A stretch of DNA of 48,834 nucleotides from an uncultured Saprospiraceae bacterium (GTDB lineage: Bacteria; Bacteroidota; Bacteroidia; Chitinophagales; Saprospiraceae): NCBI GenBank assembly GCA_964551455.1, contig CAZKDA010000006.1, positions 1 through 48,834 on the forward strand. The letters are read 5' to 3'. Shown here in pieces: positions 4,644-36,684 of this stretch (position 1 is the stretch's first letter; every line of letters starts with the position of its first letter). Position numbers and translations under genes: made by a program. The notes below the pieces were generated by a model that saw only the letters and a list, made by a program, of their open reading frames with translations, was not told the origin of the DNA and did not search any database.

Positions 4644-6377
4644 CTACTGCACCACAAACTTCCCGCTGTAAACCTTGTGATCTTCCGTGAGAATTTTGTA
4701 AAAATACAAACCCTGCCCAAGTTGGTCTCTTTCAATCCTGAGCGATGCTCCAAAACCGGAATCATAAACCCGCATCAGCTTACCGTCGATGGAATAGAGC
4801 GACACCTGCTTCACGGAGAATTGCAGTTCGTTGAAGATCAGCTCTGCTTCATGGCTCATGGGATTTGGGCTGATTTGGATGTTCGCGGGCTTTTTGGCAA
4901 TCGTTTCCGTAGAGGTGATAATGCCGTCGAACAGATCCTGCGCAATATCGGCAGCCTCCAGCAAGGGCGAAATATCCGGACAGGGATGCTCAACATCTTC
5001 CACAAACAAGACTGCAAAGCTTAAATGATTAACTCCTCCCGGATCAATTTGAAATGGCCCGGAACCTATGACCATCCTCCGGTCACCATTTGGTAAATTC
5101 TCTGAACACATCGACCAACCATTTGGATCGTTGGGAGGGCTGGGAAAGGCATAGTTGGTATTTTCTCCGCCTGTATTATATCCATTGCCTCCATAAGTAA
5201 TTTTCTCTCCACTTCTCCAGGTTCCGGTCAAATAATTATAAAATTGAGGAGCAATGGTAGGATCTTCTGTTCCGGGTGGTGGAGGTGGATTAACTCCTCC
5301 ATTATTGTAATAAATGAATGAAGACATTCCCCGGTCAACTTGTTCAATCGGGTCGCCGGGGCCTCCAATATGTACATTATCTGTTACACCTTTCAATATC
5401 TTTATCCCGACCAGAGGTATTTCATCGCAGTATCCTGGCCCGCAATCAAAACAGTTTGATGCCCCATCGATGGAATCTTGGTTATAAATAAAAGCTAAAT
5501 TATTGAGTGTGTCACAACCAATATAATCATCAATGAAGCACCCTAATTCGGGATCCACCCACAACCCTACATAAGTACTATCAAGCTGATCCAAACCGCG
5601 ATTGATAAATTTATAATCATAAAAAGTAGCGTTGTTGATATGTGGATTCGCGCTTGAATAGGCATAAGCCAAAACCTGGATTTCCATTTGTATAGGAATT
5701 CCACCGGTTTCGGAATGCACACCGCCTGCGTCGTTGAATACCCACCAAATACCTTGGTCTGCGCCATTGATGTCGGGGTGATCGCCGCTGTGCGGTTCAT
5801 ATAAGCTGTTGTTGTTGCGATCTACGAACGGCGCCAGGCCCTGGTCTGAATTCGGAAGTTCGAAGCCGAAGATGCCTTCAAAATTGGCGTTGCCACGTGC
5901 CGGCCAAGCCAGTACCGATTGCGGGATAGGGCCATCGATCTCGCCGTTGTCATCCCAGTCAGCGATTTGGGCGTTGATGTCAGCAGAATTGGTTGACCAA
6001 AAACGGTCATAATTGGCGCAATCATCAGGCGAAGTAGTTCCCGATTCCGTCAGTGGTCCCGGCCAAAAATCTGTGTTACCGGTTGCAATGCCATAAGTTT
6101 GGGCAGCCACCTTCAGACTCCCTCCTGAATCATATCCTCCTAGCCATATCGCTCCGGCGAAAATTGCACTAACTTCGGGTTCTCCTGGCGCCACCTGTGG
6201 AGCGATGTATCCCCCACCACTGCTCCCATCCCACCAGAGGTTACCCCCAACCAGGAGTCTGGCTTTTACATTGTTGGCGTCGAGGTCGATCTGAGCGGTG
6301 GAAGGTGAGCAATCCTGGGCGAAAAGAAAAGAAAAAGTGAAAGCGGAAAAAAGCAAAGTAAAGATCGGTTGTTGCAT
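4644..6377 (-). CDS. T9SS C-terminal-sorting-domain cargo protein (function unknown)
   Basis: 577-aa ORF with a signal peptide (MQQPIFTLLFSAFTFSFLFAQ). The C-terminal CTD pattern is present (IQISPNPMSHEAELIF...GLYFYKILTEDHKVYSGKFVVQ). The body has no motif I recognise. Confidence 0.7.
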   Translation of the reverse strand: MQQPIFTLLFSAFTFSFLFAQDCSPSTAQIDLDANNVKARLLVGGNLWWDGSSGGGYIAPQVAPGEPEVSAIFAGAIWLGGYDSGGSLKVAAQTYGIATGNTDFWPGPLTESGTTSPDDCANYDRFWSTNSADINAQIADWDDNGEIDGPIPQSVLAWPARGNANFEGIFGFELPNSDQGLAPFVDRNNNSLYEPHSGDHPDINGADQGIWWVFNDAGGVHSETGGIPIQMEIQVLAYAYSSANPHINNATFYDYKFINRGLDQLDSTYVGLWVDPELGCFIDDYIGCDTLNNLAFIYNQDSIDGASNCFDCGPGYCDEIPLVGIKILKGVTDNVHIGGPGDPIEQVDRGMSSFIYYNNGGVNPPPPPGTEDPTIAPQFYNYLTGTWRSGEKITYGGNGYNTGGENTNYAFPSPPNDPNGWSMCSENLPNGDRRMVIGSGPFQIDPGGVNHLSFAVLFVEDVEHPCPDISPLLEAADIAQDLFDGIITSTETIAKKPANIQISPNPMSHEAELIFNELQFSVKQVSLYSIDGKLMRVYDSGFGASLRIERDQLGQGLYFYKILTEDHKVYSGKFVVQ

Positions 6378-6750
6378 AGCTTGAGTTTTTAAATGTGTAA
6401 ATGACTAGGATATTAAGACCTTGAAGATAGCAAAAATGATTGTAACTATTCTCAGGACTTTGCCAACTGAACTGCCTCGGCAATGAACCAGTCATATCAT
6501 TGAGTGAATGGGTTGGTTGGAATGGATTGAAAATATCAGGCGATTTTGGAGCGCCGCTTATTCCTAAGATCAAAGGAATTTCGTTTTGCTATATTTTGAA
6601 AAAAGTGTGATGAAAGCAACAGGACGCAAAAAGAAAGAAACAAAAATCGCTTATTGTGGCGGAAGGGGGTAAAACCTGTGCTACAAATGTTTAGCTTTAC
6701 ATCTACAACTGAACAAGCTTTCAACTGTTTTATAAAAAAAAGATTATAAA

Positions 6751-7839
6751 ATGAACCCTGTTATCACATTTTCAAAGGATGATCCGGCCAATTTTTTCCA
6801 AACGATCAGAAGCAGGGTCAATGCCTATTTCGAAGAAAATAACATCAGGAAAACCGGAGGCTTCGAATTGCATTTCAAGACCTTCGTCATGTTTGCGATA
6901 TACCTGACGCCTTATTTTCTGATTTTATCCGGGCTGCTTCCTTTGTGGGGTATTTTTTTAAGTTATATAATAATGGGATTGGGCAAATCCGGTATCGGTC
7001 TGGGTATCATGCACGACGCCAACCATGGGTCGTATTCCAAAACTCCCTTGTTGAACAATCTGATGGCTCATTCTATGGATTTTATCGGAGGGAGTTCTTT
7101 TACCTGGAAGATCCAGCACAATATCATGCACCATTCTTATACAAACATCCATCATCTGGATGAGGATATTACCGGGAAGGCATTTTTAAGGTTGTGTCCT
7201 GGTGAAAAATTAAAAAAATACCATCGGTTTCAGCATATCTACGCCATGTTGTTGTACAGTCTTGCAACGATCAACTGGATGATAAAAAAAGATTTTGTAA
7301 GATTAGCCCAATATAATAAAGATGGAATTACTGCAAAGCATGGCTTTAATCCAAAGCGCGAAACTGCTTTTATGATTACCTCAAAGTTGTTCTATTTTTT
7401 CTACATGCTCGCCCTGCCTGTTATCATGGGCGTTCCGGTTTGGGTCGCGATACTTGGGTTTTTGCTTATGCACCTTATAGCCGGGTTGATGATCACCATT
7501 ATTTTTCAATTAGCTCACGTAGTCGAAGGGCCGGAACAATTTGTAACACCTGAAAATGGTAAAATGGAATCTTTATGGATTATCCATCAACTAAAAACCA
7601 CCGCCAACTTTGCACCCCGAAACCGGCCGATAACCTGGTTTGCCGGAGGTTTGAATTTTCAGATCGAACACCACCTATTTCCAAAGATCAGCCATGTCCA
7701 TTACCATAAAATTGCAAGGATCGTAAAAGAAACCGCAAATGAATTTGGTTTGCCTTATCATGAATTTTCAAAATTCACCCAAGCCTTGCGCTCTCATTTG
7801 CGATTTTTAAAAATGCTTGGAAACGGCACTTATGCCTAG
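6751..7839 (+). CDS. membrane fatty-acid desaturase, front-end (delta-6-like) type without a cytochrome b5 domain
   Basis: 362-aa ORF with TM helices and three His boxes: HDANHGS, HNIMHH and QIEHHLFP. The Gln-containing third box is typical of front-end desaturases. Confidence 0.8.
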   Translation: MNPVITFSKDDPANFFQTIRSRVNAYFEENNIRKTGGFELHFKTFVMFAIYLTPYFLILSGLLPLWGIFLSYIIMGLGKSGIGLGIMHDANHGSYSKTPLLNNLMAHSMDFIGGSSFTWKIQHNIMHHSYTNIHHLDEDITGKAFLRLCPGEKLKKYHRFQHIYAMLLYSLATINWMIKKDFVRLAQYNKDGITAKHGFNPKRETAFMITSKLFYFFYMLALPVIMGVPVWVAILGFLLMHLIAGLMITIIFQLAHVVEGPEQFVTPENGKMESLWIIHQLKTTANFAPRNRPITWFAGGLNFQIEHHLFPKISHVHYHKIARIVKETANEFGLPYHEFSKFTQALRSHLRFLKMLGNGTYA

Positions 7840-8009
7840 AATTCGTTGAAAATTTATTTTTGTTTGGACAAAACCAAATACACAACCGGGCTTTGCAACA
7901 ACGTTACGAAGCCCGGTACTGCAATGAGGTTGCAAGGAAAAAGTGGTTTCAACCCGGAGGATAAAACCCCAACAATTTCATAACTAAAAAGCTAAGACCG
8001 GAAAGGCGA

Positions 8010-8438
8010 CTAAGCTGTCGTCCTTCCCCAATAAGCCGGGGAACGGTCGGGGTATTGTTTCTTCAGCGCGTATTTCATCACGTCGAGCGTAGAAACGATG
8101 CCGACAAGGTTGCTGTCATGGTCAACGATCGGAACGGCATGAAACAGGTTTTCGATGAAGATCAGCACGGCAGAACCCACTTTTGCGTTAGTTTCGAGCG
8201 TGGCAAGCTTGGTAGTCATTACATCCTTGACGAGAATATCGCTGTATTCCGTGTGCGATTTTCCTAGCTTGAACAGGTCATACGTGGTGAGGATACCGAC
8301 GAGTTTTTTGCCATTTACTACCGGCAGGTGGTGGATCCGCTTGGATCTGAAAATTTTGTACACTTTTGACAGGTTGTCTTCAGGAACTACGGTGATGAGT
8401 TCGGAAGTCATAATTGTGGAGACAGGTTCGTTCATCAT
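8010..8438 (-). CDS. CBS domain pair protein
   Basis: 142-aa ORF with two CBS motifs (IMTSELITV...HHLPVV..KLVGILTTYDL and VMTTKLATL...HAVPIVD..NLVGIVSTLDV). Confidence 0.8.
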   Translation of the reverse strand: MMNEPVSTIMTSELITVVPEDNLSKVYKIFRSKRIHHLPVVNGKKLVGILTTYDLFKLGKSHTEYSDILVKDVMTTKLATLETNAKVGSAVLIFIENLFHAVPIVDHDSNLVGIVSTLDVMKYALKKQYPDRSPAYWGRTTA

Positions 8439-8624
8439 AAAAGGTAAGTTTTAAAGAGGGTTAGGAAACGGGTCTTAATGCTTCAATGATAATAAAATTC
8501 AATTATTTTACAAAACAATTTTGCTAATTTCTTCCACTTTTTCAGGCGCCTCGAATCTCTGTAAGCTACTCACGCTCGCCTAAGCCATATTTCTGAACAA
8601 CCCCTAAAATCGATGATTAGTTTC

Positions 8625-9335
8625 CTAAAAAAAATCCAGAATACTCCCGGCAAGGATTTTCGTATCGGCTTGTTCGATGGGGTGTTTGAAGCCATCGAAA
8701 ATCTTCAGCGTTCCATTGGGCAAAATATCTGCAACGGCAGCGGATTCTTCCTGCGAAACCATATTGTCCAAACTCCCCCAGCCTATGACGACTTTTTGCG
8801 TGATCCCTGAAAATGACTGAATCGGAATTGCCTGTCCGCTCCCCAAACCGGTCATCAACCGGGCGGTTCGGCGCATTAGTTCTCTCCAGTCATTCGGGGC
8901 GTGTCTTTTTTGCAAAGCGGCAGCAAACTGTGGAACTTTGCTCTCTATAACTTCCGGGTTCAGCATTTTGATCTCCCTTGCTGCAATTTCAGGACTCCAT
9001 TCCAATTTCGTTCCGAGCGTGAAGATCTTTTCCACCAGTTCCGGATGTTTCAGCGCCAGCGACAAAGCCACATAGCCGCCCATGCTGTATCCGAAAATGG
9101 AAACCTTTTGGTTTTTTTGCGCTTCGAGAAATTCCACAACCTCCGTTACAAAACCATCGATGGAAAAAGAATCGGAAAAGGATTTTCCGCCATGCCCCGA
9201 AAAGTTGAGATCGAAAACTTCGAGTTCCGGGATCAGAGATTCTTTTAAACCTACAAACTGATCCTTCGATCCGAGGGCGCCATGGAGTAGCAGGAGTGGG
9301 TGTTTGTGTTGCATTTGATTGTGTGTAGGGTTCAA
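8625..9335 (-). CDS. alpha/beta hydrolase
   Basis: 236-aa ORF with the HG oxyanion region (LLLLHGALGS) and the nucleophile elbow GYSMGG. A C-terminal His (GFKHPIEQ) is consistent with the triad. Confidence 0.75.
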   Translation of the reverse strand: MNPTHNQMQHKHPLLLLHGALGSKDQFVGLKESLIPELEVFDLNFSGHGGKSFSDSFSIDGFVTEVVEFLEAQKNQKVSIFGYSMGGYVALSLALKHPELVEKIFTLGTKLEWSPEIAAREIKMLNPEVIESKVPQFAAALQKRHAPNDWRELMRRTARLMTGLGSGQAIPIQSFSGITQKVVIGWGSLDNMVSQEESAAVADILPNGTLKIFDGFKHPIEQADTKILAGSILDFF

Positions 9336-9433
9336 ATTTAAAAAAAACTTTCTGTGATGAAAATATGAAAAGCGCTGTTCCGACTTGAAAATATTTTTGC
9401 TTTGGTCAGTTCATTGCCATGTTGTTATTCCAA

Positions 9434-10189
9434 TCACAGATACTTCACCAAAACCCGCACACCCACAAAAGCTACCAAAATCGCCGTGATGAGTTTCACA
9501 AGATGAGGATTGAAACGAACGGCGCCGAGCCGCGAACCGATCTGACCGCCGGCAAATACGCTCAACATGAGCAGTGAAGCCAGTTGCCAGTCGATATTGA
9601 AATTGGGATTGCTCATCTGGCCAAACAGGCCGGAAACCGAATTGACCAGGATGAAAAAACTGGCCGTCGCCGCAATAGTTTTTGCATGATCCCAACGCAA
9701 CAGGTGCAGCAGTGGCGATAAAAATATTCCGCCGCCGATGCCTACCATCCCGGAAAGGAAACCGATGCCGCCACCAAGTCCGCTGTTGAGCGCCAACGTT
9801 GTTTTTTTATCTGTTTCGGATTGTTGGCTCCCGGATTTATCGGGTTGTACAAACATCAAGGCCGCCGCTGCAAGGAGCGCAAAACCAAGCAAAATGAAAA
9901 AGATTTTTTCGGAAATGCGAAAGCTACCGCCGAGATAGGCCAGGGGTACGCTGAAGATGACCAGCGGCAGCATTTTGCGCCACCTGAAGTGTTTGTTTTT
10001 GAAAAAAATATAACTCCCGAATGCCACTACGGTGATGTTGCATAACAATGCCACCGCTCTGAGCAGGTGATATTCAAAACCATACAAAGCCAAAATGGCC
10101 AGATAACTCGACCCGCCTCCAAATCCAACGGATGAATACAAAACCGCGATCAGAAAAAAGAAGAGTATGATTTCCCAGTGTTCCGGCAT
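9434..10189 (-). CDS. TauE/SafE family sulfite/anion exporter
   Basis: 251-aa polytopic membrane ORF with the duplicated Gly-rich motifs typical of TauE (SSVGFGGGSSYL; GMVGIGGGIFLSPLL). Its start lies 3 nt from the stop of the upstream ykgJ-like gene. Confidence 0.75.
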   Translation of the reverse strand: MPEHWEIILFFFLIAVLYSSVGFGGGSSYLAILALYGFEYHLLRAVALLCNITVVAFGSYIFFKNKHFRWRKMLPLVIFSVPLAYLGGSFRISEKIFFILLGFALLAAAALMFVQPDKSGSQQSETDKKTTLALNSGLGGGIGFLSGMVGIGGGIFLSPLLHLLRWDHAKTIAATASFFILVNSVSGLFGQMSNPNFNIDWQLASLLMLSVFAGGQIGSRLGAVRFNPHLVKLITAILVAFVGVRVLVKYL

Positions 10190-31781: not shown

Positions 31782-33401
31782 TTAAAAAATTCTACAAAAT
31801 GGCTTTTCCAAAACTTTAGGCGGAGCAATTTTTTGCGTCAAGCGCGAAACGACAATGATGGCCAACAAACCGGAAACCATCGCCAGTGTACGAAAAGGAA
31901 ACAAAACTTCGTCGCCAACCGTCCAGGGATAATCGATCCTCAGGGGAATGCCAAGTGTCGGATCTCCGCCGCCAAAGCGCAAAACAAACGCAACAGCAAA
32001 TCCTGCAACGGCACCGTAAACATTCGCTTTTTTGTCGAAAAGCGCACAAACCAGCGCCGGAAACAACAAGCAATACACAAAATCGCTGCACAAAAACCAC
32101 AACTGATAGACGCTTTCGATGCGCAAAGCCAGCAGCGTCGCTGCGATCCCGACGATCCAAATACAGCGTTTGATCACTATTCTCAGGCCATCGGCGCTGA
32201 TCGCCGGATTCAGCAATGGCCGATACACGTTCCAACTCGCCATCGACGATGCGGAAAGGATCGACGAATCCACCGACGACATCACCGCCGCCGCCACCGC
32301 GCCCAAACCCAGGATCGCCACAACAGGGTGGGTCAGGTGTTTGATGACATGAGGCAACACCGTGGCTGCATTTTCGGGCGCCGGAAGATTCATCGCCTCC
32401 CAATCAGCTACTGCGCCGACGATCCCGATCAGCACCGACGGTATGGCCGCCAGAAGGCATACTATTCCTGCAATGACCGAAAGCCTGACCGCTGTGTTTT
32501 CGTCCTTTGAAGCCAAAACCCTTTGAAAATAAACCTGCCAGGGAATGCCCCCAAACATCAGCAGCAACGCATAGTCCCACCAAACCCAATAATAATTTCC
32601 CAAAGCTTCGCGGCTGGGAAAAGGACTGGCAGCCGCTCCCCTTTGCTCGACATACTCCGCCCAGGCCTGGTCAAGTCCGCCGACATGCTGCAAGGCAAAC
32701 GGAACGACGATGACCAAACCAACGATCAAAATGATCAACTGCACAATATCCGTCAAAGCCACAGCCCACAATCCGCCAATTGCCGTGTAGGCTATTGCGA
32801 TCAAAGCCGAGATCACGATGGCGGCCTGCATTTCAATGCCGAGTATGGTTCCGAAAGTAGCGCCGAGGGCGGTCAGGATCGCTGCCGTCCAGAAAATTTC
32901 TCCGCTCAGGGCGGGCAGGAAAAGCACGGCGGCCATGCGTTTGCCAAAGCGCTGTGCCAGGGGATCGAGCATGGTACTGAATTGATACCGCCGCATCTTC
33001 CTGGCGAAAAACAATCCGCCGATGATGAGGCTCATGGCATATCCCCAGGGAGCTTGCACCCACACCAGTCCATAATCCGCGCTGGCCGTGTATTCCGCCG
33101 TTCCGTTGATGTAGCCGCCGCCAACCCAGGTGGCGCTCATCGTGAAAACCGCCACAAAAAGCGGGATTGACCTTCCGGCCAACAACACTTCGGAAATATC
33201 ATTGCTCTTTTGCAAGGTGGCAGCATAAGCGCCCAGGAAAAAAATCAGCCCGTAGAAGAAAATCATCGAAATAAATCCCGGCCAGGAGACGTCGGAGTCG
33301 GTGAAGAAGAAAAGGTATAAGCCCGACAAAACCAAAACGCCAGTTAAAATGGCAATTGGTTTTATGAATGTGTGGAAAGAGTTATCCATTCGTTTTGTCA
33401 C
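31782..33401 (-). CDS. sodium:solute symporter, CHT1/SLC5A7-like high-affinity choline transporter family
   Basis: 539-aa polytopic ORF. Long by-eye colinear similarity to animal CHT1 as I recall it: FTMSATWVGGGYINGTAE, WVQAPWGYAMSLIIGGLFFA(R)KMR, TMLDPL(A)QR(F)GKRM, ALGATF, ISALIA..YT..GGLW(A)VA.TD(I)VQL. Confidence 0.75.
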   Translation of the reverse strand: MTKRMDNSFHTFIKPIAILTGVLVLSGLYLFFFTDSDVSWPGFISMIFFYGLIFFLGAYAATLQKSNDISEVLLAGRSIPLFVAVFTMSATWVGGGYINGTAEYTASADYGLVWVQAPWGYAMSLIIGGLFFARKMRRYQFSTMLDPLAQRFGKRMAAVLFLPALSGEIFWTAAILTALGATFGTILGIEMQAAIVISALIAIAYTAIGGLWAVALTDIVQLIILIVGLVIVVPFALQHVGGLDQAWAEYVEQRGAAASPFPSREALGNYYWVWWDYALLLMFGGIPWQVYFQRVLASKDENTAVRLSVIAGIVCLLAAIPSVLIGIVGAVADWEAMNLPAPENAATVLPHVIKHLTHPVVAILGLGAVAAAVMSSVDSSILSASSMASWNVYRPLLNPAISADGLRIVIKRCIWIVGIAATLLALRIESVYQLWFLCSDFVYCLLFPALVCALFDKKANVYGAVAGFAVAFVLRFGGGDPTLGIPLRIDYPWTVGDEVLFPFRTLAMVSGLLAIIVVSRLTQKIAPPKVLEKPFCRIF

Positions 33402-33403
33402 CT

Positions 33404-33433
33404 TTGAATGCTAACGGAATTCTTTTATATTTG
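33404..33433 (+). promoter_or_regulatory. Bacteroidota sigma-A-type promoter (-33 TTG / -7 TAnnTTTG)
   Basis: TTG at 33404-33406 and TATATTTG at 33426-33433, with a 19-nt spacer. The -7 box lies 30 nt upstream of the ATPase ATG (33464). Confidence 0.55.
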
Positions 33434-33463
33434 GATCGATCAAAACATTGACCGTTACTGCTA

Positions 33464-34567
33464 ATGAAAAATCCAATCAAAACGCTAAAGATAACCAATT
33501 TTAAATCGATCAAAACCCTACGGCTGGAGTGTGAGAGGATCAATGTTTTTGTGGGGAAACCGAATGTGGGAAAGTCCAATATTCTTGAGGCGTTGAGTTT
33601 GTTTTGTACGCCTTTTAGTATTCTGAATTTAAGGGATAAAAATATCTTGTCGGATTTTATCCGTTATAATTCGTTTTCAAATCTTTTTTATAACAACGAC
33701 CCTTCTCAACTTATTAAAGTTGAAACAAATATCGGCTGGGCTTTACTGAAATCTTCCCGGTATTATTTTGAATTGTTTTTGGGAAAAGACAGTAGAGAAT
33801 TTACCAAACCGGATTATTCTGACCAAACACCGGATGAGGTCAGAAAAAAGATCCTTGATTCCATGGATAAAAATGTCCAACCCGCCAAATCGATGATACC
33901 CAATTATTACGAACGATTCCAGGCGGACGGAAACCTCAACAACCCAAGTTCTTACAAGCAGCTTTTCCATATCCCAGTTAAAAAATACAGCTTCGGGCAA
34001 TTCGATCATAAAAAGCAAACTTTTGAAAACAACCTCCCGTATTTAATGCCTCCTGATGGCTCGAATCTTTTTGAAATCCTGCAAACCTACCCAAATTTGC
34101 GAAAACAAGTAGCGGCTTACTTCGATGAATATGGTCTCAAACTGTTGTTGGATTTTGAAAACAATTCTTTACAAGTCCAGAAAGAAGTGGATGGCGTGGC
34201 GTACAAAACCCCTTTCAACCTGATCGCCGATACTCTCCAAAGAATTATTTTTCACTATGCGGCCATTGAATCTAACAAAGATTCGGTATTATTATTCGAA
34301 GAGCCAGAAAACCATTCGTTTCCGCCCTATATCAGGGAATTGGCTGAAAAAATTGTCGAGGATAAGAGCAATCAATATTTTATTTCCACGCATAGTCCTT
34401 ATCTTTTGAATACCATCATTGAAAACGCAGATGATGTAGCTGTTTTTGTCATTGGCTTTAAAAACTTTGAAACGATTGCTTACCGACTTTCAGAAAAAGA
34501 TATTTCTGAAATTTCCAACTATGGAGTTGATGTGTTTTTCAATTTAAATTGGTTTGAGGATGAGTAG
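33464..34567 (+). CDS. ABC-type (AAA_15/AAA_21-like, OLD/AriA-like) ATPase, short form
   Basis: 367-aa ORF. The N-terminus LKITNFKSIKTLRLECERINVFVGKPNVGKSNILEAL holds the Walker A. A degenerate signature region follows (ADTLQRIIF), then Walker B VLLFEEPENHSFP and H-loop ISTHSPYLL. It looks more A+T-rich than its neighbours by eye. Confidence 0.75.
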   Translation: MKNPIKTLKITNFKSIKTLRLECERINVFVGKPNVGKSNILEALSLFCTPFSILNLRDKNILSDFIRYNSFSNLFYNNDPSQLIKVETNIGWALLKSSRYYFELFLGKDSREFTKPDYSDQTPDEVRKKILDSMDKNVQPAKSMIPNYYERFQADGNLNNPSSYKQLFHIPVKKYSFGQFDHKKQTFENNLPYLMPPDGSNLFEILQTYPNLRKQVAAYFDEYGLKLLLDFENNSLQVQKEVDGVAYKTPFNLIADTLQRIIFHYAAIESNKDSVLLFEEPENHSFPPYIRELAEKIVEDKSNQYFISTHSPYLLNTIIENADDVAVFVIGFKNFETIAYRLSEKDISEISNYGVDVFFNLNWFEDE

Positions 34568-35051
34568 AGAATTAAGGATACTCCCCGAATGCCATGCTGA
34601 TACCCTTTTGATTGAAATCTTAGGTTATAAAAAACCTAACCATCAGCCTAATATTAATGATGTTGCCAATTCCATGCTTCAAAAATATAATAATTCGTTG
34701 GCGATAGGGATAGTTGACAATGATAAAAAACAACCTCCATATTTTAAATCCTCATTCGAAATTCTCAAAGAACAAGATGGTTTGATTTTAAAAAAGAATC
34801 CTGAAAAACAACACTATTTGATTGTCATTTCACCCGCTTTTGAACAATGGATATTCAATGCGGCTCATCAAATTGAAATAAACCCAAGCGATTACGGAAT
34901 AGGAAACATGAAGTATTTTAAGTCCATCACAAAGAGCCGAAAGATATATTCCAATGAAAAGATGAAAGACTTTTTAAATACACTCGGGCAAAAAACCAAT
35001 TCGCCTGTTAAACTAATGGCTTCCTGGATAAAAGAAATCTTAGGTGAATAA
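34560..35051 (+). CDS. small stand-alone Toprim-like (DUF4435/OLD C-terminal-like) protein
   Basis: 163 aa from the ATG at 34560; the track ORF begins at a TTG at 34554. The ordered motifs are LPE10CHAD14 (E...D), GIVD53ND55KK (DxD) and ISPAFE95QW. The ATG overlaps the ATPase stop by 8 nt (ATGAGTAG). Confidence 0.55.
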   Translation: MSRELRILPECHADTLLIEILGYKKPNHQPNINDVANSMLQKYNNSLAIGIVDNDKKQPPYFKSSFEILKEQDGLILKKNPEKQHYLIVISPAFEQWIFNAAHQIEINPSDYGIGNMKYFKSITKSRKIYSNEKMKDFLNTLGQKTNSPVKLMASWIKEILGE

Positions 35052-35766
35052 CTCAGCTCCTTCTCCCTCACCTCTCCAAAAAACCCTGGCCTGGGCAGTC
35101 CACATTTTCACGGCTTCCGGGATGGTCGCCGGATTTATGGCGATCCTGGCGATCAATGAAAAGGACTGGCGGGAAGCGATGTTCTGGCTGATCCTCTGCC
35201 TGATTATCGACGGGATCGACGGTACCTTTGCCAGGATGTTCAAAGTCAAAGAAGTTTTGCCATTCATGGATGGAAAGACCATGGACTTTGTAGTGGACAT
35301 CGCCACCTACGCCATTATCCCGGCTTATTTTTTCCATGAGGCTGATCTGGTGGCCGAATCCTGGAAATTGCCTTGCACAGCTTTGATCCTGCTCGTTTCG
35401 GTGATCTATTACGGAAAGGACGGGATGGTATCCGGAGATAATTATTTCATCGGTTTTCCGGTGCTTTGGAACCTCGTGGTTTTTTACCTGGTTTTTGTTT
35501 TCCAGGCTAGTGAAACGACGAACCTTGTGCTCATCGTAGTTTTTAGCATCCTGCATTTTATACCCATAAAATTTGCATACCCCAGTCGCGGCGCCCGCTT
35601 TCGCATTCCTACTTTGCTGTTTTCCGTTTTGTTTTTTGTAGTGATGATCGCGATCACTTATTTGTACCCCGAAAGAAATGGCTTGCTCACCTTCGGCGCC
35701 TGGCTCTGCGGATTGTATTTTGGGATGTTGGCGGTTTACAATACTGTTTTGGAACGCAAACTCTGA
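35044..35766 (+). CDS. pcs: phosphatidylcholine synthase (CDP-alcohol phosphatidyltransferase family)
   Basis: 240-aa ORF with the CDP-OH-P motif DGIDGTFARMFKVKEVLPFMDGKTMDFVVD. Pcs-specific blocks match Sinorhizobium Pcs as I recall it (AVHIFTASG, VKEVLP, GFPVLWN(L)VVF, QASE). The only start that keeps TM1 is the GTG at 35044, which overlaps the upstream stop by 8 nt. Confidence 0.85.
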   Translation: MNNSAPSPSPLQKTLAWAVHIFTASGMVAGFMAILAINEKDWREAMFWLILCLIIDGIDGTFARMFKVKEVLPFMDGKTMDFVVDIATYAIIPAYFFHEADLVAESWKLPCTALILLVSVIYYGKDGMVSGDNYFIGFPVLWNLVVFYLVFVFQASETTNLVLIVVFSILHFIPIKFAYPSRGARFRIPTLLFSVLFFVVMIAITYLYPERNGLLTFGAWLCGLYFGMLAVYNTVLERKL

Positions 35767-35976: not shown

Positions 35977-36684
35977 ATGGGACTCTGGTCAAAAATTAAG
36001 AAGGCTGCCAAAAAAGTCTGGCAAAAAGTCAAAGCCGTTGCCCGAACCGTTATTAAGGTTGTTACGGAAGTGATCGGAAGGGTTTTGGGCATCGTTGATC
36101 TGTTGATTGGATTCGTAGCCTGGCCTCCCAAGAAACTGCGGTTACACATCTTCATTCTTACCAAACCGGACGGAAATCCGGTTGTCAATGCCACTGACCT
36201 CGACAACTCTATCGCTTTTGCAAAGAAGGTTTTAAAAGACAAATTCAATGTGAAATTGCTGCCGTTTAGCAAGCAGTTTGTGGAGATCATAACCGAGCCA
36301 GCACCCGCTGCCGCTTTGGAAGTCAGTTGTGATTTCGAAGCCTTCAAAGAGGAATACGGCGATGCCGGAGAGTATTTCGCAAAACATACTGCGGGGTGGA
36401 ATGCCATTCCCGTATCCCTGAAATTTCCGATCACAGCATTTGTCGTTGAAAATGTAATCAATAAGCAGGGTTGTTCGCTGGGGCCTTTGTCCGATTATCT
36501 CACCCTGGATCCGGAAGGTGTGAAAAACGCGAGCACTTTAGCGCACGAAATCGGCCATTCCTGCGGCCTCTGGCATTCCGGGACGGTGTCGAATATCATG
36601 TTTGCGGATGCGAACCGAGGCGATGGGGTCAAATGGTTTCAGAAAAACCTGTTGCGCAGCTCCCGGCACGTGATGTACTGGTGA
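35977..36684 (+). CDS. small metzincin-like zinc metallopeptidase with a cationic amphipathic N-terminus
   Basis: 235-aa ORF with HEIGHSCGLWH (HExxHxxGxxH) followed by a possible Met-turn (SNIMF). N-terminus: GLWSKIKKAAKKVWQKVKAVARTVIKVV, then a hydrophobic stretch VIGRVLGIVDLLIGFVAW. No classical signal peptide. Confidence 0.6.
   Translation: MGLWSKIKKAAKKVWQKVKAVARTVIKVVTEVIGRVLGIVDLLIGFVAWPPKKLRLHIFILTKPDGNPVVNATDLDNSIAFAKKVLKDKFNVKLLPFSKQFVEIITEPAPAAALEVSCDFEAFKEEYGDAGEYFAKHTAGWNAIPVSLKFPITAFVVENVINKQGCSLGPLSDYLTLDPEGVKNASTLAHEIGHSCGLWHSGTVSNIMFADANRGDGVKWFQKNLLRSSRHVMYW

Follow-up and report, generated by a model that had tools for sequence, protein, structure and literature searches.

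Within a 48,834-nucleotide (nt) stretch of contig CAZKDA010000006.1, from an uncultured Saprospiraceae bacterium (GenBank assembly GCA_964551455.1), we analysed two overlapping forward-strand genes, which encode an ABC-type ATPase of 367 amino acids (aa; positions 33464-34567) and a small partner protein of 163 aa (34560-35051, with an ATG start at 34560). The whole stretch is called the window below. We find that this pair represents a large branch of systems that join an ATPase to a small Toprim-like partner, a branch that lacks existing models and is a distant relative of known candidate anti-phage systems. The small open reading frame (ORF) starts within the final ATPase codons, and the ATPase stop and partner start share 8 nt (ATGAGTAG, 34560-34567), which implies translational coupling. 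The coordinates and overlap are those given by a first-pass annotation of the letters alone, which had described the two genes as a miniature split OLD/PARIS-like pair.

The product of the first gene is confirmed as an ABC-type ATPase of the defence-associated AAA_15/AAA_21 group, as the first-pass annotation had proposed. Pfam recovers AAA_15 (1.1e-18) and AAA_21 (1.1e-13), both above the Pfam cut-offs. In PADLOC the best match is AbiLi (7.4e-21, full length), followed by AriA (6.5e-19) and HEC-01A (3.8e-17, residues 1-359 on positions 1-353 of a 363-position model), with further matches to ATPase-Toprim_I-B, GajA and PDC-M38A; MAD3 and NsnB are matched weakly. This ranking was unchanged in all 40 family ATPases scanned, at E-values of about 1e-20 to 1e-28 and with AbiLi again best (up to 9.4e-28). 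We read these profile matches as similarity to the group as a whole and not as membership of a single model. Fold comparison agrees: an AlphaFold2 (AF2) model built on 40 homologues, with a predicted local distance difference test score (pLDDT) of 86.8, matches PtuA of Septu in Foldseek (4.7e-12, probability 1.0), together with SMC heads, Rad50, the retron Eco8 OLD protein, GajA and Thermus OLD (E-values of 1e-10 to 1e-12, all with probability 1.0). Three motifs are invariant or nearly so across the 40 homologues, namely Walker A (GKPNVGKS, residues 31-38), Walker B (LLFEEPE, residues 276-282) and the H-loop (THSPY, residues 309-313). The ABC signature position is occupied by a non-canonical LIADTLQR (about residues 253-260; window 34220-34243), in which A255, D256 and T257 are nearly invariant.

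The small partner matches no Pfam, PADLOC or PHROGs family. The PADLOC comparison suggested earlier for the locus was informative for the ATPase, through AbiLi, AriA and HEC-01A, and empty for its partner. The sole NCBIfam match of the window protein is MAD4, where it scores 19.5 bits (8e-4) and the cut-off is 160. A word-indexed search returned 10 relatives. In an exhaustive profile search of 1.84 billion representatives, which are clusters at 50% identity, 1,085 matched at E <= 1e-3, with 538 of these reaching E <= 1e-10. The idea that this is a distinct family is thus upheld for the small partner, which has no Pfam or PADLOC model and yet comprises 1,085 clusters. The 150 best-listed members are stand-alone proteins, mostly of 160-185 aa.

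The acidic residues singled out in the first-pass annotation (E10, D14, D53, D55 and E95) are real and conserved across the 210 full-length members over which we counted. Position 10 is E in 208 of 210, with a gap in the other two, and position 14 is D or E in 204. Position 53 is invariably D (210/210), position 55 is D in 208 and position 56 is K in 187, whereas position 95 is always E or D (210/210) and position 125 is K in 194. All but the last lie in the N-terminal part of the protein (about residues 1-105), an alpha/beta domain with E10-C11-x-x-D14, H28, D53-x-D55-K56 and E95; K125 lies in a C-terminal helical region (about residues 106-163). In an AF2 model of the protein (pLDDT 90.6, predicted TM-score, pTM, 0.86), the invariant acidic residues are found where successive strands finish, at their C-terminal ends: E10 follows the strand formed by residues 6-9, the DxD that of residues 48-53 and E95 that of residues 85-90. 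Cys11 is at the N-terminus of helix 12-20.

Cys11 and His28 (E10-C11 at 34587-34592, H28 at 34641-34643 in the window) covary, His28 being present in 183 of 194 members with Cys11 and in none of the 10 with Gly11. The motif is mostly ECxxD; the EGxxD form (canonical VEGExD) occurs in 8 of 137 aligned members, and the Gly11 variants resemble textbook Toprim (ILVEGEADTVF, IIVEGEGDSVL). This pattern suggests that the Cys-His pair takes the place that Gly has in the canonical EGxxD motif of Toprim.

The order of the motifs, E-(G/C)-x-x-D, then D-x-D-K, then E, is the order found in OLD Toprim domains (WVEGPSDRIY, IVIDSDK, GREIENY), which we extracted from viral loci for comparison. Toprim domains carry a Glu in the loop after strand 1, where E10 lies, a DxD after a later strand, as D53/D55 do, and an acidic residue after the next core strand, as position 95 does. 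We scanned 137 small-family members singly against Pfam, NCBIfam and PADLOC. Pfam gave sub-threshold matches to DUF4276 in 6 (best 0.0077) and to RloB in 3 (best 4.7e-4), and NCBIfam gave MAD4 in 19 (best 9e-6). PADLOC gave weak matches to several HEC-01B models (few relatives, E >= 1.2e-4), mad4, AbiLii (3 of 137, E >= 0.009), PDC-M03B and PDC-M25B. The most recurrent weak match in each of the three libraries is thus a small ATPase-partner family, several of which have been assigned to Toprim in the literature: DUF4276 and RloB are placed in the Toprim superfamily (PMC12065111), as are HEC-01B (10.1101/2024.01.29.577857) and AbiLii (PMC13064643). DUF4435 (PF14491), which the first-pass annotation had named for the Toprim part of PARIS and AbiL, gave no match to the small window protein at E <= 1 and was not among the commonest matches of the 137 relatives. 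The small partner is presumed to be a metal-dependent nuclease effector.

The two families travel together. Scanning one genome per GTDB species yielded at least 426 related loci, 80 of which were kept for analysis. A small-family member lies directly downstream on the same strand in all 78 loci that have DNA there; in the other two the contig ends. The co-occurrence of the two families raised in the first-pass annotation is therefore strict wherever it can be assessed. Five contexts fetched through ATPase homologues all contain a Pfam-less ORF of 161-165 aa that overlaps the ATPase gene. Among the junctions of 79 related pairs, an overlap of 8 nt occurs 23 times, of 4 nt 18 times and of 1 nt 8 times. 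Pairwise identities of ATPase and partner correlate (r = 0.77, a value reached in 0 of 500 Mantel permutations), and we conclude that the two proteins co-evolve.

The two genes evolve at different rates. Locus L002 is syntenic with the window, and between the two the symporter upstream of the pair is 81% identical, the ATPase 80% and the phosphatidyltransferase-like protein downstream 81%, against 50% for the small partner (L002:5399-5890). The partner has a nonsynonymous distance (dN) of 0.38, compared with 0.11 in the ATPase, and the ratio of nonsynonymous to synonymous distance (dN/dS) is about 0.18 and about 0.11, ratios that are rough because synonymous sites are saturated. Both genes are under purifying selection, with the partner changing at about three times the rate of the ATPase. 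At one locus of a Saprospiraceae metagenome-assembled genome (L018:4410-7471), two cassettes stand in tandem. Their ATPases share 46% identity overall with the first ~45 residues identical, and their small proteins share 58% with the last ~35 residues identical. The identical ends suggest exchange of cassettes by recombination at conserved ends; it is also possible that the pattern is an assembly artefact.

The cassette is compositionally foreign and is placed at many unrelated chromosomal sites. In the window the pair has 35.8% G+C against 44.1% for the whole and is the lowest-G+C stretch of its length (1,588 nt; z = -3.2), so that the A+T-richness judged by eye in the first-pass annotation is borne out. 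G+C at third codon positions is 0.41 and 0.33 in the two genes, compared with 0.50-0.62 in flanking genes. In 76 of 77 loci the A+T content of the pair exceeds that of its flanks, the mean difference being 9.3 points, and neighbours differ at nearly every locus. The cassette has probably been acquired horizontally. Hosts are mostly Bacteroidota (Saprospiraceae, Hymenobacter, Larkinella, Dyadobacter, Niastella and Chitinophaga), with others among Methylococcales, Zixibacteria, Dadabacteria and a Methanoperedens archaeon, and some genomes hold several divergent copies. There are also signs of decay. Small-partner genes are split by frameshifts in L021-L023. The sole family member in the plasmid collection is a fragment in Parabacteroides distasonis record NZ_OY725749.1 (L012:5052-5528), a truncated C-terminal ATPase with 45% identity to residues 191-360 and with no small partner, which looks like a decayed copy. 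Searches of plasmids by tblastn with the small protein and the family consensus returned nothing relevant. Matches in viral contigs were rejected as relatives of the pair, as they turned out to be OLD- or Gabija-type ATPases with UvrD helicases.

The sites occupied are predominantly within housekeeping surroundings. The immediate neighbours in the 78 loci number 133, and every one of their 25 commonest Pfam families is a housekeeping family (tRNA synthetases, transporters, dehydrogenases), led by the alpha and beta subunits of glycyl-tRNA synthetase. In 11 Methylococcales genomes, from Crenothrix, Methylobacter, Methylovulum, Methylocucumis and Methylomonas, the pair sits between glyQ and glyS, both with strong Pfam matches (L041, L042, L044, L057, L061, L069, L071, L072, L073, L079 and L080, at about 5000-9700 in each). 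All genes there are on the same strand with very short gaps, which puts the pair inside an essential operon. It is unusual for a defence system to be embedded in operons in this way. Three Cytophagales/Larkinella loci (L046, L077 and L085) have in common an upstream neighbour of ~700 aa on the opposite strand, which is probably methionyl-tRNA synthetase.

In the window itself, the pair is preceded by a divergent sodium:solute symporter gene (31782-33401, minus strand) and followed by a co-directional gene with a GTG start (35044-35766, plus strand), which, without a domain search, we read from its sequence as a CDP-alcohol phosphatidyltransferase. The GTG start of the latter overlaps the stop of the small ORF by 8 nt (GTGAATAA, 35044-35051). 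Syntenic L002 has an identical 8-nt overlap between partner and downstream gene (L002:5883-5890), and L003 shows a 4-nt overlap with the next gene, which encodes the large subunit of exonuclease VII (Pfam Exonuc_VII_L). From these junctions, the cassette seems to be read through into host genes downstream. A promoter-like motif of the Bacteroidetes type (33403-33433, plus strand; TTTG, 19 nt, TATATTTG) lies 30 nt 5' of the ATPase start codon, inside the 62-nt gap between symporter and ATPase genes. It is an exact match to TTTGN{18,21}TANNTTTG, with the core form TTTG-N19-TAnnTTTG, and scored 9 of 12 in a generic sigma-70 scan. Chance alone predicts 1.6 occurrences of this pattern in the window, and there are two. 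The promoter claimed in the first-pass annotation is thus present as a motif and suggestive by its good placement, while being statistically inseparable from chance, and we rejected it as stand-alone evidence.

Flanking repeats, target-site duplications and inverted repeats around the cassette amounted to short chance-level matches only, and Rfam and tRNA scans of the window gave no matches. Further downstream (35977-36684), the window holds a 235-aa ORF with a zinc-metalloprotease-like motif (HEIGHSCGLWH); it is 91% identical in L002, where it has another relative position.

Taking the locus and the family together, we suggest, at a probability that we set slightly above even, that the pair arrived by horizontal transfer and forms a two-gene conflict module, coupled in translation, of the kind that combines an ABC ATPase with a small Toprim-like nuclease, as in HEC-01, AbiL, MAD3/MAD4 and PARIS. 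In such a module the ATPase would bind the small protein in a stoichiometric complex and serve as both sensor and regulator. A trigger, either an invader protein or a nucleic acid, would cause ATP binding or hydrolysis to release or activate the small protein, which would then cleave DNA or RNA, for example tRNA, through its E/DxD/E metal site, and this cleavage would halt either the invader or the cell that it infects. At the metal site, Cys11 and His28 would probably add a ligand or brace. The scheme in which an ATPase sequesters the effector until a trigger releases it is borrowed from PARIS (PMC11464382, PMC13064643), and by analogy with PARIS, AbiL and HEC-01 a defence role is plausible. 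A bolder version, which we regard as doubtful, is that the family may itself form a large class, as yet without models, of minimal ATPase-effector conflict modules that would colonise housekeeping operons, the space separating glyQ from glyS among them, and not mobile elements or defence islands. Its effector would be a Cys/His-augmented, strand-depleted Toprim offshoot or a fold without a solved relative, and might target the translation apparatus as PARIS AriB acts on tRNA.

Several results weigh against a defence module of this kind, and some of them favour other explanations. When its discoverers tested a representative of HEC-01, it gave no protection from any phage used (10.1101/2024.01.29.577857). 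A set of 2.9 million viral contigs yielded no close relative, and the 25 commonest neighbour families include no integrase, transposase or defence family other than AAA_21 of the tandem copy. The ATPase also departs from the canonical ABC signature, in that the LSGGQ-like Ser and Gly that would stand ~20 residues ahead of Walker B are absent. As LIADT stands where HEC-01A has LSDGS, ATP-driven dimerisation may differ. The earlier inference of a defence-type pair holds for the defence-group ATPase and the foreign composition, and is weakened by the housekeeping neighbours and by the HEC-01 result. Those two points would also suit a selfish addiction cassette of the toxin-antitoxin (TA) kind with no anti-phage role, in which the ATPase restrains a small toxin; such a cassette would persist because its loss is harmful and because the operons into which it is wedged are hard to rearrange. 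The glyQ/glyS placement across several genera implies long-term retention, the housekeeping gene downstream usually follows the pair closely and in the same direction, the Pfam text for AAA_21 reads 'putative AbiEii toxin, Type IV TA system', and PARIS itself behaves as a type II TA pair (PMC13064643). We nevertheless think pure addiction unlikely: TA behaviour and abortive-infection defence are compatible, the nearest ATPase families come from defence systems, and the fast evolution of the partner, the divergent copies and the tandem cassettes fit an arms race better.

The core-gene neighbours, tRNA synthetase genes among them, and the purifying selection on both genes would also be expected if the pair were part of host operons, as a nucleic-acid maintenance pair like RecF and RecR or as an RNA-processing pair. 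RecF is an ABC ATPase of about 360 aa and RecR a small Toprim protein of about 200 aa, sizes that the present pair resembles, and the ATPase N-terminus matches RecF (TIGR00611 at 7.9e-10; RecF in the PDB at 1.3e-5). That similarity, however, is confined to the generic N-terminal P-loop region, and a housekeeping function sits poorly with a patchy phyletic distribution, a context that changes in almost every genome, foreign composition in nearly all loci, several divergent copies in some genomes, and the frameshifted and truncated remnants. We consider it very improbable. A different objection concerns the small protein, which could be a new fold or other enzyme (for example with Cys11-His28 as a catalytic or metal dyad), or a non-catalytic adaptor loaded by the ATPase. 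Its confident model finds nothing in the PDB or BFVD at E <= 0.001, the top 50 Foldseek matches contain no Toprim protein, and the best TM-score is 0.34 (PH0156, 2p62); against solved Toprim structures the Toprim fold (sheet order 2-1-3-4) was undetected, and the strand expected between the E and DxD motifs is not predicted. PDB searches recovered no Toprim protein, whether run with the one sequence, with a profile of the whole family or with a profile of the N-terminal domain. Profile-profile comparison with hhalign, on templates of low diversity and without secondary structure, was not significant for the OLD Toprim alignment (P = 0.046) or for DUF4276, entered either as one sequence or as an alignment of 120 (P = 0.18-0.19); its short local matches, themselves not significant, align E10 to the EG glutamate and DxDK to DSDK. 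Family consensus and EG variants reached only DUF4276 in Pfam, at E 0.03-0.08. The Cys11/His28 covariation and the position of Cys11 at a helix N-terminus would suit a dyad. Against this, the EG variants dispense with Cys and His while practically no member lacks E10, D53, D55 or E/D95, OLD Toprim has its motifs in the same order and in matching EGxxD and DxDK forms, and the commonest weak matches are DUF4276, RloB, MAD4, HEC-01B and AbiLii. A protein outside Toprim seems to us about as improbable as pure addiction. 'Toprim-like metal-dependent nuclease' is the best reading of the small protein, not established and somewhat above an even chance; the original Toprim claim is partly supported, by motif order and recurrent sub-threshold matches, and Foldseek, hhalign and PDB profiles add no significant link. 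PIN and CheY-like receiver folds, which also carry acidic residues at strand ends, were rejected, as neither gave a Pfam or Foldseek match though both are abundant in the PDB.

ABC ATPases combined with Toprim-type modules (OLD, Gabija, PARIS, AbiL, HEC-01, MAD3/MAD4) are a major theme of prokaryotic immunity, and the present branch is sizeable: its partner family comprises about 1,085 clusters at 50% identity, and GTDB species-representative genomes hold at least 426 loci. As the partner has no family-level Pfam, NCBIfam, PHROGs or PADLOC model, annotation built on these libraries would see only a lone 'AAA family ATPase'. As no defence or mobility family is among the commonest neighbours, guilt-by-association screens would miss the cassette. 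At 367 + 163 aa, the pair is a very small and tractable case of an ABC ATPase controlling a nuclease-like effector, and it offers natural EC...H versus EG variation at a putative metal site.

Among known systems, OLD, GajA and PtuA have the ABC ATPase fold in common with the window protein, and the Toprim motifs of OLD (EGxxD, DxDK, ExE) are ordered as in the small protein. In OLD and GajA, ATPase and Toprim are fused in one chain of ~580 aa, whereas the window has two ORFs and a partner without a detectable fold match to OLD Toprim. GajA also pairs with a UvrD helicase, and the window pair has no helicase neighbour; PtuA of Septu pairs with an HNH nuclease. PARIS resembles the window in having split genes for an ABC ATPase and a nuclease partner, and its AriA models are matched by the window ATPase. 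Its proteins are considerably larger, with AriA at about 55 kDa and AriB at about 35 kDa (PMC11464382). AriA has coiled-coil inserts and AriB carries DUF4435, which gave no match in the window pair, and PARIS is typically found on P4-like satellites and phages, in contrast to the window family, which was not found in viral contigs.

MAD3/MAD4 of MADS combine an ATPase with a DUF4276-like partner, and MAD4 is the commonest NCBIfam match of the small family, but MAD3/MAD4 lie inside an eight-gene methylation-associated system whereas the window pair stands alone. Menshen has NsnB/NsnC with DUF4276 or RloB effectors and comprises three genes against the two of the window. For both systems, window-family scores are far under curated cut-offs (19.5 vs 160 bits). 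AbiL of Lactococcus is, like the window pair, a two-gene ATPase and Toprim-type system (PMC13064643). AbiLi is the best full-length PADLOC match of the window ATPase, though with a score generic for AAA_15 ATPases, and the window partner itself has no AbiLii match. AbiLi was superposed over 453 aa and AbiLii over 206 aa (PMC13064643), so that both appear longer than the window proteins.

The nearest named system is HEC-01 (Hma-embedded candidate 01), an ABC ATPase with a DUF4276 partner, and not OLD or PARIS, as the first-pass label had it. In the plasmid collection, end-to-end alignment with the window ATPase is confined to the ATPases of Aeromonas veronii pHX3 and of the large plasmid of Desulfotalea psychrophila, at 22-25% identity, and PADLOC calls both plasmid pairs HEC-01 (HEC-01A 5.6e-142, HEC-01B 9.5e-71). 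On pHX3 the pair (L117:1-6056) lies between a DNA methyltransferase and a DEAD/DEAH helicase, beside an 'ATP-dependent endonuclease', in what looks like a composite restriction-like locus. The window ATPase scores 60 bits on the HEC-01A model against 470 for bona fide members, and its partner matches no HEC-01B or DUF4276 model and is ~60 aa shorter than DUF4276 partners of 225-228 aa, with ECxxD...DxDK...E in place of the EGKTE...VDYYG...EFE of the DUF4276 examples. The examples lie on conjugative plasmids by a methyltransferase and helicase, or by a helix-turn-helix regulator, whereas the window family lies in chromosomal housekeeping operons. Earlier, both window proteins had been judged much shorter than characterised versions. 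This holds against PARIS and fails for the ATPase against HEC-01A (368-374 aa vs 367 aa), and since HEC-01A is equally short, 'miniature' fits only the partner. Along with ATPase length, both bona fide HEC-01 examples and the window have the ATPase-then-partner order, an 8-nt overlap of the two genes and a small partner with a glutamate after its first strand, and a bona fide HEC-01A aligns with the window ATPase from end to end (22% identity, E 9e-10).

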